DNA from: Vermamoeba vermiformis
Taxonomy: Eukaryota
DNA length: 64,000 nucleotides
Reading direction: 5' to 3'
Assembly: GCA_045837725.1 (NCBI GenBank)
Contig: JBEWZL010000077.1
Span: forward strand, 186,001 to 250,000
How positions within the stretch are numbered: position 1 is the stretch's first letter; every line of letters begins with the position of its first letter. The translations under genes were made by a program, and so were the position numbers. Shown here one piece after another: positions 27,531 to 31,723 of this stretch. The notes beneath the pieces were generated by a model that was not told the DNA's origin, searched no databases, and worked only from the letters and a program-made list of their open reading frames with translations.

Positions 27531-30134
27531 CTATTTGGAGTCTTCAATCTCGCGCAACAAGATGTTTTGCACGTCGCTGATTGGTCGGTTGTCACGTGAC
27601 AAGAGATCGAGCAGTATTTTGTTGAAGTGCACGGGGATGCCGAGTCTCTCGCCCTCACTCACAATCGCGCCGTTGATGCACGCCACTTCTGTCTTCTCGC
27701 CGCGCTTGACGTCGTAGAGCATGGACGACACATTTTCACTCGTGTCGCGCAGCACTGACAGCACTTTGTCCATCGGATCTGAGTAGGGCAATTGAATTTT
27801 CTTGGCTTGAGCCACTTTGACGGACTCTTGAACTGCTTTCTCGAGCAGTTTGCGACCCACGGGCGAGTTGTAGAGCTCACCGTTACTCAACTGCAACAGC
27901 GCGGTCAATGTGTTGATGCCCGCATTGATGATCAACTTGCCCCAAATCATGCTCTCGAGCTCTTCAGTGACACGTGTCTCAAAACCTGATTCAGTGAAAT
28001 ACGAGGCCCACTCGACCACTGTCAGGATATGTTAGTTATGGACATTAATATCAAGAGCTAGAGTGCCACTTACTGTTGAGATTGAACGGTGAGGACGAGT
28101 TGAGTGCGATGGTGGTGAGACCCATGCCACCGTGCTTGACTTCACCTGCTTGGAGAATAGACGCGCCGTGATTGGTCACACCTTGATAGACACGCATTTG
28201 ACTGCCGAGTTCATCGACGAGCACTTCACGATTGCCAAGTCCGTTCTGCAGTGTGAGCACGACACCCTTCGGACTCAGTATTTGCATCGCTTTCTTTGCT
28301 GCCTCGCGTGTGTGCAGCCCTTTGACGAGCACGACACACAAGTCTGCAGGGCCCACTGAGTTCAACACGTCTTCAGGTCGCTCAGTCACTTTGATGTTGG
28401 TCACGAGCTTCTGTGACTTGTCGAGTTCGTGCAGCACGAGACCTGATTGGTTGATTTTCTCCGCGTGTTCTTTCCACGACGAAATCATCCACACATCGCG
28501 CGGACTATTAGCGGTAATGTGGCTGTACTTTTGACGAGTGAGGGCCAATCTAGCGGCAAACAATGAGCCCATGGCACCACCGCCGATCAAACAGACGTTC
28601 TTCGTCAAGAGCTCGTAGTTGAATGGCTGGCCTAACGTTGAATTGAACGGCGGAATTTCACCAGTGATCACGTCGTTGATTTCGTTGGAGGTCTTCATCG
28701 TGACAGTGTTGCTATTGTTGTTCGTGTTGATGAAAAATTTGAACGAGCTCGCATTCGCCGTGTTCTCAGCTTGCGTGTTTTGACTGCGTGACTGTTGTTC
28801 GGTTGTAGCTTGCATTAAATTGGTGGGCATTGGATTGTTGATCTGCGCGCCTTTCAAGTGACCAGCTTGTCGTTGCAAAAATCTGTCCCACTCTTCAGGC
28901 TTAATGCTGTACGTGTGTTCTTTGGCTGGGAAGCTGCGTTCAGTGACCTCTTCTTTGTACTTTTGCAGCGTCTCAGTCATGATTTGACCGAGATTGATGT
29001 ATTGTTTGCAGAACTTGGGCTTCATATTGGGGTACAAGCCAAACATGTCGTGCCACACCAAGATCTGACCTGAAGTTTTGTTGCCAGCACCAATGCCGAT
29101 AGTAGGGATATCTAGCTTCTTCGTAATGTATTCGCCCACCACTTCAGGCACTGATTCAATGACGAGTGAGAAGCAGCCCGCTTGTTTCAGTGCTTCGGCA
29201 TCCGCTAACAAACTTTCAGCGTCCTAATCAGAGGTCAATAACATGTTATTACATACGACTCAACATCATTATTGTTACCTCAGCGGTCTTGCCCTGCACT
29301 CTGAAGCCACCGAGCGCGCTGAGAGTTTGCGGCGTGAGACCAATGTGACCCATGACTGGCACGCCTGCTTGCACAATGGCCTCGATGCGTGGGGCCATTC
29401 TGCGACCTCCTTCGAGCTTCACAGCATCGACCCGGCCTTCTTTCATCAACCTACAGCGATGTTAGGCGATATTGTATTATTAACCGCTGCGTTAAAGTTG
29501 TACCTGAAGGCACTTTGAATTGCCATTTCAGAACTGGATTCGTAACTGCCAAACGGCATGTCACCAACGACAAAGGTCTTTTGTGCACCACGAGTTACGG
29601 CTTTGCAATGGTGAACCATATCTAGGACAAATAAATTACTTTTTGTTGAAATTTCCAGGTCTTTGCTCGTTAATTCACATCGCGAAATTGAATTAATAAA
29701 TTTAAGGTTGAATAATTACCGTCCATGGTAACTCCAACTGTATTATTCTCTCCCATCATGACCATGCCTATATAAATTAAAATTAGAATTTTCTTGAATT
29801 TTTCAGACGCGGAGCAAACGGATCTGTAGTGGATCGACCCTCGGAATATTTTTTTTAAACAATGATACTCAATTAATTTTATAATAATCGTACCCAGCGA
29901 ATCACCAACGAGCAATGCATCGATCCCGGCTTGATCAGTGATGTACGCCGAGGTGTAATCGTACGCAGTGACCATCGTGATCGGCTTGCCCTCGCGGTAC
30001 TTTTTTTGCAAGTCAAGAATAGTGTTTTTCTTAGATTGGGTCACGGTTGAGTACATTCTCAATGGGTTGATTGATTTTCCCTCGGTATATTTTCGAACTC
30101 CATCACTGATCGTGCGTCGTACAAATTGAAACAT
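27531..30134 (-). CDS. panB-panE: Bifunctional ketopantoate hydroxymethyltransferase (PanB) - ketopantoate reductase (PanE) fusion
   Basis: PanB motifs [51 protein letters not shown] 28051-29211 continues without a stop into PanE motifs IGGGAMG, LQNGLG, then (after intron 28019-28073) [24 protein letters not shown]. Confidence 0.95.
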
Positions 30135-30280
30135 TGAAAAGTAATTGTCCGATCAGATCTGCAACTTGGATCTGTTCAATATGTGAGCTAACGATCAACT
30201 CTTTACTATTCTTAGTTGTGTTGATGTGCGCGTTGAATAAATTGAAATGAAACAGTTGCGCATTTATCTTTTTTCTACCA

Positions 30281-30334
30281 GGGCTGAAATGTCACGTGGT
30301 TCTGTGAACGGCACGTGGCTGCAAGTTTCAGCTC
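30281..30334. promoter_or_regulatory. Quasi-palindromic element with two CACGTG boxes in the panBE/panC bidirectional promoter
   Basis: CACGTG at 30293-30298 and 30312-30317; outer arms GCTGAAA/TTTCAGC and inner arms GTTC/GAAC are complementary. Confidence 0.6.
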
Positions 30335-30421
30335 CGTTTCCATCAACCAGGGCCTCCGTTGGCATATAACAGTGTTTTTTGCACAGATTTAGTTCCACAC
30401 ATCACCACACGAGTGACCATC

Positions 30422-31723
30422 ATGAGCAAGTTGACAGTGATCAAAACTATTAAGGAATTTCAAGCCTATCGCAGATCTCTGCCTCAAGACAAGTCTGTTG
30501 GCTTTGTACCGACCATGGGATATTTACACGAGGGTCATATAAGCTTAGTGAACTTGGCTAAGAAAGGTGCGAATTATTTTGTACCAAATTTGACATTTCA
30601 AATATTTTAAAAAATGTGAAAAAAATCAAATAATATTCCAATTAATTTTGTTAAATAGCCTATCGTTGTGTTATAATTTATCGAGCATTAGAAAATTATA
30701 ATTTGAATTTTTGTAATTTTTAAAATATTGTAACGACATCCGTTTCGAAATTGACACTTCATTAAAGATTGTGATATTGTCGTCGCTAGTATCTACGTCA
30801 ATCCTAAACAGTTTGCGCCGCACGAAGACTTTTCAACGTACCCGCGGTATGTTTCATTGAAAAGTCAGTTACTTTAAATTTCCCGATCCAACAATGTTCC
30901 TTATTAGAGACTTGGAACGTGATATGAAACTGCTCGAAGAAGGAGGGGCACATGTCTTATTTGCACCTGAAGGCCCTGACATGTATCCACCTGGTTACAG
31001 AACTTACGTCAATTTGAATGACATTGAAGACACGCTTGAAGGCAAATCCAGGCCTGGATTTTTCAGAGGTATGAATGCAACAGTCAAAGCATGCATGTAA
31101 AGGCTATTTAATGATTTTCATACCCTCTGACTTGCATTGACAGGTGTTGCTACCGTCGTGTCCAAATTATTTAACATCGTCCAGCCACACCGTGCATATT
31201 TCGGACAAAAAGACGGCATTCAATGCATTGTAGTCAAGTGAGTGGTGTCATATTAGAGTCATATTTGAATGTGCGCTAATCAGCGATCAGATCCATGGCT
31301 CGTGACTTGAACTTCCCAGTGGAGGTCATTATTGGCCCTACTGTGCGCGAACACGATGGACTGGCCAAGAGCAGTCGCAATGTCTATTTGTCACCCGAAG
31401 AGCGTGCCATAGCTCCCATATTGTTCCAAGCACTGAGTGCCAGTCAAGCGCTGTACAACGAACACAACGAACGCTCGAGCAAAGCTTTGATTGAAAAGTA
31501 CGTGGTTGCGCGACTTGTTGTGTGAATCCTGAACTGACCTTGATATAGAGCTATTTCAGTATTGAAGACTGAGTCCTCAATAGTCTTGGACTATTTTAGT
31601 GTAGCAGATCTGGACAGCGGTGCTGAAGTTGAACAGATCGGACCGAGCGGTGCATTATTTTCAACTGCAGTCAAGTTAGGCAAGACAAGACTGATTGACA
31701 ACGTGATATTGAACCCTAAATAG
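30422..31723 (+). CDS. panC: Pantoate-beta-alanine ligase (pantothenate synthetase)
   Basis: [58 protein letters not shown]. Confidence 0.97.

Follow-up and report, generated by a model that had tools for sequence, protein, structure and literature searches.

Why should an amoeba carry the genes for an entire biosynthetic route side by side, transcribed away from each other? The question is raised by a 4193-bp locus, occupying both strands at 27531-31723 of a 64,000-nucleotide stretch of Vermamoeba vermiformis DNA (the whole stretch analysed, called the window below), where a PanB-PanE fusion gene stands head-to-head with a gene for PanC. Several explanations for the arrangement can be entertained, from an imported bacterial cluster to an accident of gene order. 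The reading that we consider probable is that these are ordinary nuclear pantothenate genes, vertically inherited, and that the bifunctional PanBE and the separate PanC likely share a bidirectional promoter.

Two spliced genes for three enzymes

Gene models were built from stop-to-stop open reading frames and the sequence itself. From ATG to stop, the PanB-PanE (KPHMT-KPR) fusion gene covers 27531..30134 on the reverse strand in six exons (2217 nt, 738 aa plus stop), and the gene for PanC, pantoate-beta-alanine ligase, covers 30422..31723 on the forward strand, also in six exons (861 nt, 286 aa plus stop). Each gene has five GT..AG introns, and all ten are seen as splice joints in contigs of the public RNA run X1. 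Seven of the ten, PanC introns 1 and 4 included, are also found among the raw-read joints listed for runs X21-X23, and the joint of PanBE intron 1 is present both in X1 contigs and in raw reads. An X1 transcript contig spanning 27589-28504 crosses PanBE intron 5, and the junction of PanC exons 5 and 6 is identical in the transcript-derived P0049. Gene models, Pfam matches and spliced RNA thus agree with a sequence-only reading of the window, which had seen three enzymes encoded by two divergent, intron-containing genes. Transcripts of both genes are present in the same RNA runs (X1 and X21-X23). X21-X23 are three raw runs from two samples, from a related strain 90-95% alike to the window; their depth dips where the strains differ, is no fair measure of expression and was not used for co-expression.

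Every one of the eight exon pieces scanned, from both genes, matched its expected Pfam family, and E-values of 1e-5 to 1e-38 per exon argue that the pattern is not due to chance. The family libraries were run on exon pieces of the window and on P0001, a full-length protein 93.6% identical to the window protein. PF02548 covers the PanB domain in three exon pieces, each scoring 50-133 bits against a cut-off of 28.7, at profile positions 1-45 (residues 36-80, in exon 1, 29894..30134, which also encodes an N-terminal extension), 102-158 (exon 4, 29279..29450) and 160-258. Exons 2 (29720..29767) and 3 (29504..29621) are placed by the gene model and RNA joints, which flank exon 2 at both ends; exon 4 has RNA joints as well. 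P0001 scores 324.6 on TIGR00222 (cut-off 207.55), and by both models the domain belongs to the PanB family. The active-site and metal residues of E. coli PanB, which we take to be D45, D84, K112, E114 and E181, are matched in an alignment of P0001 to E. coli 1m3u by D78, D117, K147, E149 and the glutamate of VIESVP. The window protein itself has the PanB motifs GDSLG at 77, VGDMPF at 115, VKLEGG at 146 and VIESVP at 214.

The end of PanB, a linker and the start of PanE are all encoded in exon 5 (28074..29223). In its single 383-aa translation PF02548 occupies residues 2-100 and PF02558 residues 210-373, and in matches to PDB structures the PanB chains stop at residue 105 and the KPR chains begin at 210-211. 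Since the junction lies inside one exon, the fusion is independent of any splice call, and with two complete enzyme domains encoded in a single reading frame and a single mRNA, the gene belongs to the KPHMT-KPR class. Exon 6 (27531..28018) supplies the C-terminal domain of PanE and the stop (PF08546, E 8.7e-34; TIGR00745 profile positions 161-299). PF02558 scores 102.5 bits and PF08546 117 bits, the Rossmann motif GGGAMG is at residue 407, and solved KPR chains match P0001 residues 403-717; the domain thus has both the GxGxxG Rossmann motif and the ApbA C-terminal domain of the PanE/ApbA family. On TIGR00745, where the cut-off is 141.35, P0001 reaches 236.3; this is a subfamily rather than an equivalog model, and no equivalog cut-off is reached. 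That the reductase is fused to PanB suggests ketopantoate as its substrate. The catalytic residues of E. coli KPR are presumably K176 and E256, and the window protein has WGKL at 602 and KTEV at 685, both located by motif rather than by residue-level alignment to E. coli KPR.

Two further segments of the fusion protein lie outside these domains. The linker (28597..28908, reverse strand; residues 299-402) is rich in N, T, Q and S, and residues 106-209 of the exon 5 translation have no Pfam or PDB match. It is the part most diverged between strains: with a likeness threshold of 90%, raw-read depth is about 0 in the bin 28759-28909. Codons 1-35 (30030..30134, reverse strand) encode an extension that precedes the PanB domain and has 7 K/R, 2 D/E and 8 S/T, E. 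coli PanB residue 3 aligning to P0001 residue 36. The Toxoplasma fusion enzyme, unlike PanC, resides in the mitochondrion (PMC8764084); by analogy, and from its composition, the extension is probably a mitochondrial presequence.

PanC is a stand-alone protein with no N-terminal extension. PF02569 was found in all four PanC exons scanned, with profile positions 2-45 in exon 1 (30422..30566), 73-121 in exon 3 (30908..31068), 155-209 in exon 5 (31291..31497) and 222-268 in exon 6, which includes the stop (31549..31723). Exon 5 also matches TIGR00018, a model run here on single PanC exons. Exon 2 (30768..30846) is placed by the gene model and RNA joints, and exon 4 (31144..31237) by the gene model and the position of its motif. 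The motifs HEGH at 36 (exon 1), FGQKD at 148 (exon 4) and KSSRN at 186 (exon 5) are present, and residues 4-284 align to 277-aa PanCs at 50-55% identity. This full-length match, with the HxGH and KMSKS-like SSRN motifs, assigns the protein to the PanC family.

From this domain content a route can be proposed. The PanB domain would convert ketoisovalerate to ketopantoate, and the PanE/ApbA reductase domain, complete like PanB and joined to it by the low-complexity linker of about 104 residues, would convert ketopantoate to pantoate. The basic 35-residue extension probably directs PanBE to the mitochondrion, and PanC in the cytosol would ligate exported pantoate to beta-alanine. The sequence-only reading had noted that the window contains no panD, and PF02261 is indeed absent from the 83 scanned ORFs of at least 110 aa.

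Ancestry of the fusion and of PanC

The same reading regarded the PanB-PanE fusion as remarkable and held that eukaryotes usually scatter their pan genes. The fusion proves to be widespread in protists, PanB and ApbA domains occurring together in 31 of 32 long homologues (among them Dictyostelium, Arcella, Echinamoeba, Capsaspora and Diplonema), and the view of scattered genes overlooks the many protists with PanB-PanE-PanC, PanB-PanC or PanE-PanC fusions. A KPHMT-KPR fusion had already been published for Toxoplasma and Perkinsus, in passages of PMC8764084 and PMC8717973. As those passages describe it, the enzyme of Toxoplasma and other coccidia and of Perkinsus matches the one described here in having PanB N-terminal, PanE/ApbA C-terminal, an N-terminal extension and a separate PanC; that of Toxoplasma is given as about 144 kDa (PMC8764084), against 738 aa in the window.

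Similarity is closer still among Amoebozoa, where proteins annotated as 3-methyl-2-oxobutanoate hydroxymethyltransferase have the same domain order and family as the window protein and differ from it only in the variable linker. Those compared were from Dictyostelium discoideum AX4 (P0017), Cavenderia, Heterostelium, Acytostelium, Arcella, Echinamoeba and Vermamoeba vermiformis (P0045). Identity to the D. discoideum protein is 39.7% over 764 columns. Five 738-aa database proteins align to the 738-aa model end to end without a gap at 93.2-93.6% identity, and the 737-aa EukProt protein P0045 aligns with one gap at 93.4%, which makes the organism V. vermiformis or a close relative.

The PanB-PanE fusion is of ancient amoebozoan origin. 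In the fusion tree, a Tubulinea group (SH-aLRT 98) that holds the window protein, P0001, P0002, Echinamoeba, Arcella and others stands beside an Evosea group (SH-aLRT 84) of Protostelium, Cavostelium and dictyostelids. In the PanC tree, the window PanC falls in a 21-row protist group (SH-aLRT 90) that also includes Balamuthia, Stenamoeba and fused forms, whereas the named sequences from Chloroflexi, Firmicutes and chytrids lie outside it; the backbone forks of this group are below 80. Both trees are quick searches with SH-aLRT as their only support, and most rows of the PanC tree are unnamed. It replaced an earlier tree that lacked amoebozoan PanCs. A PanC search by exon alignment on scaffold P0084 was flooded by Chloroflexi relatives and returned no eukaryotic PanC, and was replaced by a profile search of representatives.

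These trees bear directly on the suggestion, also made from the sequence, of a domesticated and horizontally acquired cluster. Recent capture of a bacterial panB-panE-panC cluster might predict the 50-55% identity that PanC shows over its whole length to Chloroflexi-like PanCs, but eukaryotic PanCs are just as similar to it, and in the tree it joins those of Amoebozoa. Mites, whiteflies and nematodes have acquired pantothenate genes from bacteria (PMC7738191), and bacteria do set panB beside panC; against this, the fusion gene is common to Amoebozoa with a taxonomy-like tree, and the locus has ten spliced introns whose positions are kept in a related metagenome contig, L002. The genes flanking the locus are ordinary eukaryotic ones, and its GC content is like that of the rest of the window. 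Because the fusion tree follows amoebozoan taxonomy and PanC groups with protist PanCs, recent bacterial transfer of the cluster is highly improbable.

The bacterial arrangement itself is different. Of the 29 metagenome loci retrieved, 26 are PanB genes that lack introns and whose best segment is 39-58% identical; none of these 26 has a PanE match, and PanC adjoins PanB, on the same strand, only in L019 and L029. The layout of these two looks bacterial and is uninformative on linkage in eukaryotes. Bacterial panBC and panBCD operons, as in L019 and L029, cluster pathway genes as the window does, but they are co-directional, polycistronic and intron-free, whereas the window locus is divergent, monocistronic and spliced.

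Fusions that include PanC offer another point of comparison. PanB-PanE-PanC triple fusions are represented by P0020, P0025, P0028, P0029, P0032, P0311 and, in acoel worms, P0022 and P0024, and PMC8717973 describes them in chromerids; PanB-PanC or PanE-PanC fusions are P0030, P0437, P0317 and P0297 from Stenamoeba. As in the window, PanB, PanE and PanC are physically tied to one another for joint expression. The fusions achieve this within one reading frame, whereas here a shared upstream region would do so, PanC being a separate protein encoded on the opposite strand and probably active in a different compartment. The window pair could on this evidence be a relic or a precursor of a triple fusion, an ancestral gene or tandem pair having been broken and PanC inverted, or the reverse. 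Triple fusions in the order PanB-PanE-PanC do exist (P0020, P0022, P0311), one ORF of the amoebozoan Stenamoeba places an ApbA_C tail immediately before PanC, and the window PanC shares its tree group with fused PanC domains. That said, PanC lies 5' of the fusion gene and in the opposite orientation; splitting a triple-fusion gene would by itself be insufficient, and an inversion or transposition is needed as well; no intermediate form was found, and with backbone forks below 80 the PanC group gives no readable order of events. We regard such a history as unlikely.

The region between the start codons

The sequence-only reading placed the two ATGs 287 bp apart, and the gap is confirmed at 30135..30421. 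It comprises the PanBE 5' UTR and the putative shared promoter region. An X1 transcript contig reaches 30226, giving a PanBE 5' UTR of at least 92 nt and leaving at most about 195 bp untranscribed, a spacing that fits a bidirectional pair of genes from the same pathway. The X1 contig for PanC begins within the coding sequence, and the start of PanC transcription was not found. Read joints of the "opposite strands" type occur at 30399 and 30403, together with a loose end at 30437; these very few reads may mark the 5' end of the PanC mRNA by way of a cDNA hairpin artefact.

Read depth is 0.3-1.6 in the bin 30269-30419, between the genes. With this depth, and with monocistronic, spliced genes on opposite strands, the locus is not an operon, and "operon-like", the term first applied to it, is a misnomer for a pair with separate transcripts. 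Instead, two separate transcription units would start from the 195 or fewer untranscribed bases, which contain two CACGTG boxes (30293..30298 and 30312..30317), the second in a 12-nt direct repeat (D3) with the first. Both boxes are kept in L002, where the spacer between them is 8 nt shorter. At the density with which CACGTG occurs in the window, finding two in 287 bp has a Poisson P of 0.012; the hexamer is over-represented in the window as a whole (37 observed, 14.75 expected), and the boxes may therefore be a general element.

The identity of this region to L002 is 74%, against 43-60% for six short introns (51-75 nt), and six of the eight other non-coding stretches in the comparison are less well conserved than it is. 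PanBE introns 1 and 2, at 77% and 82%, equal or exceed it; they fold no better than shuffled sequences (z +1.37 and +1.51), so that folding does not account for their high conservation. Rfam detected no structured RNA over 27000-32500, and none of the six small ORFs on either side of the locus holds a Pfam family.

The shared region is most likely a bidirectional promoter, from which both mRNAs would rise and fall together. Head-to-head pairs of genes for one process, a few hundred bp apart, are familiar from yeast GAL1-GAL10 and from histone H2A-H2B, whose shared elements and co-regulation are experimentally established. The window pair has the same layout, whereas its co-regulation is something that we infer.

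Linkage in relatives and the meaning of adjacency

L002 keeps PanBE and PanC linked in the same orientation, with the same intron positions and with both CACGTG boxes. It is one of three close loci; L001 and L003 stop short of the PanC side. L001, the sister contig of L002, runs collinear with the window for about 12 kb, and since the L002 lineage is collinear with the window anyway, linkage there is expected without selection. An accidental and selectively neutral gene order in a compact genome, with each gene having its own promoter and with no regulatory or selective benefit, would account for linkage seen only in a close relative that also keeps the surrounding gene order, and the frequency of CACGTG across the window is in keeping with it. 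PanBE and PanC probably work in different compartments, which would remove substrate channelling as the benefit.

How surprising the adjacency is depends on how the question is put. By our estimate, two named genes among some 10-20 thousand would be immediate neighbours by chance at about 1e-4, but a genome has thousands of same-pathway enzyme pairs, so that one chance adjacency is unsurprising (an estimate rather than a computed value). The counterparts in Toxoplasma, TGME49_257050 and TGME49_265870, are presumably unlinked, judging from gene numbering, and these distant ids again favour an accident. The passages of the Toxoplasma report that treat the pair list ids far apart in number (PMC8764084) and do not describe the genes as neighbours, whereas here PanC lies 287 bp away, head-to-head. 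Against an accident, protists have physically joined these three enzymes on many occasions, which points to recurring selection for joint expression, and the intergenic region is better conserved than most of the non-coding stretches compared with it. Two further sequences, P0021 (a fusion) and P0435 (a PanC), each come from a 6366-nt JGI contig and possibly represent a second linked lineage. We consider a neutral accident rather doubtful, and still prefer ordinary, vertically inherited genes with a likely common promoter.

Because P0021 and P0435 each lie on a contig of 6366 nt, there is a hint that the arrangement could be an old one shared with distant protists. It would then be a selectively maintained bidirectional B5 module, its CACGTG boxes serving a nutrient-responsive factor of the bHLH/bZIP type, and the genomic state from which triple fusions repeatedly arose or into which they decayed. 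This extension of the argument is quite improbable at present. If true, it would provide a rare primary-metabolism gene cluster in eukaryotes and a traceable route between clustering and fusion.

The fusion, then, is not new, and the adjacency of PanBE and PanC is documented in one lineage only. The open-access literature text searched contained no report of PanBE-PanC linkage in Vermamoeba vermiformis or Amoebozoa, nor of divergently transcribed pantothenate genes. The main value of the locus for now is a clean annotation. It describes a free-living, bacteria-eating amoeba, in keeping with the phagotrophic protist predicted from the sequence, that keeps the full route from ketoisovalerate to pantothenate in two genes. 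To the known protein fusions it adds a shared upstream region as a way in which protists may couple the three enzymes, and if the linkage proves to be old or the genes co-regulated, the pair would make a small, tractable case for studying clustering versus fusion of primary-metabolism genes.

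Gene structures and transcripts

The stretch is eukaryotic DNA, with a GC content of 36-56% and short GT-AG introns. The sequence-only reading placed two divergent, intron-containing genes, a PanB-PanE fusion and PanC, at 27531-31723, and this is borne out by open reading frames (ORFs), Pfam matches and splice joints. Gene models were built from stop-to-stop ORFs and the sequence itself, and were assembled by coordinates with a script. The fusion (KPHMT-KPR) gene lies on the minus strand and has six exons (30134-29894, 29767-29720, 29621-29504, 29450-29279, 29223-28074 and 28018-27531) encoding 738 residues, while PanC, on the plus strand, has six (30422-30566, 30768-30846, 30908-31068, 31144-31237, 31291-31497 and 31549-31723) encoding 286. 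All 10 introns are of the form GT...AG and measure 51-201 nt, and the start codons are separated by exactly the 287 bp originally claimed (30135-30421). The fusion model aligns end to end and gap-free with five 738-aa database proteins (93.2-93.6% identity) and is 93.4% identical to a 737-aa EukProt protein of Vermamoeba vermiformis. Judged by these protein identities, the source is a free-living, phagotrophic amoeba, either Vermamoeba itself or a close relative.

Transcript evidence came from public runs compared with the segment 27400-31900. Run X1 provided contigs that match the window at 95-100%; the run was taken as RNA by guess, yet its contigs lack every intron, and all 10 introns are present there as exact joints. 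The raw RNA reads of runs X21-X23 are mostly 90-95% alike to the window and thus derive from a related strain. All five fusion-gene introns are visible in these runs, with 11-118 reads per run. Joints for PanC intron 1 number 18, 7 and 26 reads and those for PanC intron 4 number 4, 0 and 4, and the remaining three PanC introns were not found among the raw-read joints listed for X21-X23.

Between the genes, read depth drops to 0.3-1.6 in the bin 30269-30419. An X1 contig extends to 30226, which puts the 5' UTR of the fusion gene at 92 nt or more, so that the untranscribed DNA shared by the two genes amounts to at most about 195 bp. No 5' end of the PanC mRNA emerged from the X1 and X21-X23 data. 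In X21 and X23 a small number of RNA reads connect opposite strands at 30399 or 30403, and a loose inverted end is seen at 30437 in 8 RNA reads; these features may come from a cDNA hairpin artefact at the PanC mRNA 5' end, about 20 nt before the ATG.

The enzymes and their fusions in other organisms

Pfam returned the expected family in all eight exon pieces scanned: PF02548 (PanB), PF02558 and PF08546 (PanE/ApbA) and PF02569 (PanC). Exon 5 of the fusion gene is a single open frame of 383 codons that spans the last 100 PanB positions, a gap, and the first 146 ApbA positions. When this exon is compared with solved structures, PanB chains stop at residue 105 and reductase chains start at 210-211, on which evidence the predicted protein consists of two complete enzymes with a linker of about 104 residues between them, in which N, T, Q and S are abundant. 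The full-length homologue P0001, 93.6% identical to the window model, scores 324.6 bits against the NCBIfam panB equivalog (cut-off 207.55) and 236.3 against the apbA_panE subfamily model (cut-off 141.35). The metal-binding or catalytic residues D45, D84, K112, E114 and E181 of E. coli PanB are all matched in the P0001 alignment, and the window fusion protein holds the PanB motifs matched in P0001. The window reductase carries GGGAMG, and the window PanC carries HEGH, FGQKD and KSSRN.

The PanB-PanE fusion itself is already known and not new. Passages in two papers describe bifunctional KPHMT-KPR from Toxoplasma, other coccidia and Perkinsus, along with trifunctional ORFs in chromerids (PMC8764084, PMC8717973). 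A search for long homologues with exon 5 as query gave 32 proteins, all of at least 672 aa, and 31 of them have both PanB and ApbA domains. Carriers of the fusion include Dictyostelium discoideum AX4, Cavenderia, Acytostelium, Heterostelium, Arcella, Echinamoeba, Cavostelium, Protostelium, Capsaspora and Diplonema. PanC is additionally present in seven long homologues, and P0030 is PanB-PanC.

Architectures were taken from a Pfam scan of ten proteins. Triple fusions have the domain order PanB-PanE-PanC, P0437 is PanB-PanC, and P0317 is PanE-PanC; protists have thus coupled these enzymes in many ways. In P0297, a EukProt entry from the amoebozoan Stenamoeba stenopodia, a 386-aa ORF places an ApbA_C tail immediately before a full PanC, so that PanC stands fused behind PanE in at least one other amoebozoan. 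Two acoel proteins at NCBI, P0022 (Convolutriloba macropyga) and P0024 (Symsagittifera roscoffensis), are PanB-PanE-PanC triple fusions encoded on contigs of 89 and 62 Mb; they form a separate, long-branched pair in both the fusion and the PanC tree, and their architecture suggests animals with the full pantothenate route in one gene.

Linkage with PanC and the shared upstream region

A single metagenome scan with exon 5 as query gave 29 loci, three of them close relatives (L001, L002 and L003), and of these only L002 continues past the 5' end of the fusion gene. In L002, PanC is on the other strand, with about 280 bp between it and the fusion-gene start, and the intron positions are those of the window. 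Linkage is thus kept in a relative, but L001, a contig of the metagenome that also gave L002, runs collinear with window positions 28632 to 16796, interrupted by two gaps, and kept linkage in this lineage is therefore expected without selection. L001 is without most of 20594-22749, where about 180 nt replace 2.1 kb, and most of 23811-26488, where about 500 nt replace 2.7 kb; the latter stretch of the window includes a BTB-domain ORF (25019-25780).

Between the window and L002, identity is 76-89% in exons, 43-60% in six short introns (51-75 nt), 60% in PanC intron 1 (201 nt) and 74% in the intergenic region (203 of 275 aligned columns, 16 gaps). Fusion-gene introns 1 (126 nt; 29768-29893, minus strand) and 2 (98 nt; 29622-29719, minus strand) are 77% and 82% identical, respectively; neither has an Rfam match, and neither folds better than shuffles.

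Two CACGTG boxes between the ATGs, at 30293 and 30312, are both kept in L002, where the spacer is 8 nt shorter. At the density of the motif in the window, two copies within 287 bp have a P of 0.012. Across the window CACGTG occurs 37 times versus 14.75 expected from dinucleotide shuffles, and none of 100 shuffles reaches 37; this excess may stem from a cis element that is common in this genome, or from codon usage. A further two copies stand close together at 47612 and 47624. Intergenic conservation and the kept boxes fit a constrained shared promoter, and co-regulation of the two genes is plausible. The label "operon-like" given to the pair earlier is unsupported, the genes being divergent.

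A PanB-PanE fusion of 698 aa (P0021; 50% and 33% identity to the window's two domains) and a stand-alone PanC of 288 aa (P0435) are each recorded on just one JGI contig, 6366 nt long in both cases. The two may share the same contig, and possibly represent a second, distant lineage with linked genes. In Toxoplasma, the genes for KPHMT-KPR and PanC carry distant identifiers where they are named in PMC8764084, whereas those of the window stand head to head, 287 bp apart. In the open-access text searched, no report of the divergent fusion-PanC pairing was found; the pairing is documented in a single lineage and is an example of an arrangement of a known kind.

Origin and proposed working of the pathway

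In a tree of 30 fusion proteins from a quick maximum-likelihood search, the window joins P0001 (SH-aLRT 100) and then P0002, within an 8-row group (98) whose other members are Echinamoeba, Arcella and three rows with a code or no name. Next to this group stand nine rows made up of Protostelium, Cavostelium and dictyostelids (84), and Diplonema and a Capsaspora group fall outside both amoebozoan groups; several long branches were flagged in other parts of the tree. Because this branching agrees with amoebozoan taxonomy, the fusion is, on the tree, old and vertically inherited.

The whole spliced PanC has 45-60% identity to bacterial and eukaryotic PanCs alike. Searched with a profile, 1.84 billion representatives yielded 149 proteins with E <=1e-30; among the best 20 of the 149, organism or source names were obtained for 5 (Stenamoeba, Balamuthia, the chytrid Nowakowskiella, an MMETSP transcript and a metaclust entry). 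In a 47-row tree, with most rows unnamed and the backbone unresolved, the window PanC belongs to a group of 21 rows (SH-aLRT 90, not starred), among them Balamuthia, Stenamoeba, the row from MMETSP and PanC domains of fused proteins; the named bacteria (Chloroflexi, Firmicutes and others) and the chytrids lie apart from this group.

The flanking genes are eukaryotic (LRR, BTB, SAYSvFN, ABCB transporter, Ras, DBC1 and RasGAP), and the GC content of the locus is like that of the remaining window. Together with the ten introns and both trees, these features argue against the horizontally acquired cluster considered earlier and make a recent bacterial transfer very unlikely. The transporter (34802-38470, minus strand) is a full-size ABCB type in which ABC_membrane and ABC_tran pieces alternate, and 59194-64000 (minus strand) encodes a large neurofibromin-like protein that has both a RasGAP and a CRAL_TRIO_2 domain.

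The fusion protein has an N-terminal extension of 35 residues, with 7 K/R, 2 D/E and 8 S/T, and the window PanC begins at Pfam model position 2, without an extension. The Toxoplasma fusion enzyme is described as mitochondrial, and Toxoplasma PanC as not, in a passage of PMC8764084. By this scheme, pantoate would be produced by the fusion enzyme inside the mitochondrion, exported, and ligated to beta-alanine by a cytosolic PanC. No panD-like ORF is present among the 83 ORFs of at least 110 aa scanned in the window (the locus's own four left out), as first stated; in eukaryotes, beta-alanine usually comes from other routes than panD. Were the enzymes in different compartments, any benefit of adjacency would lie in joint transcriptional control, not substrate channelling. 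The fusion itself is best regarded here as an old amoebozoan gene of an already known type.
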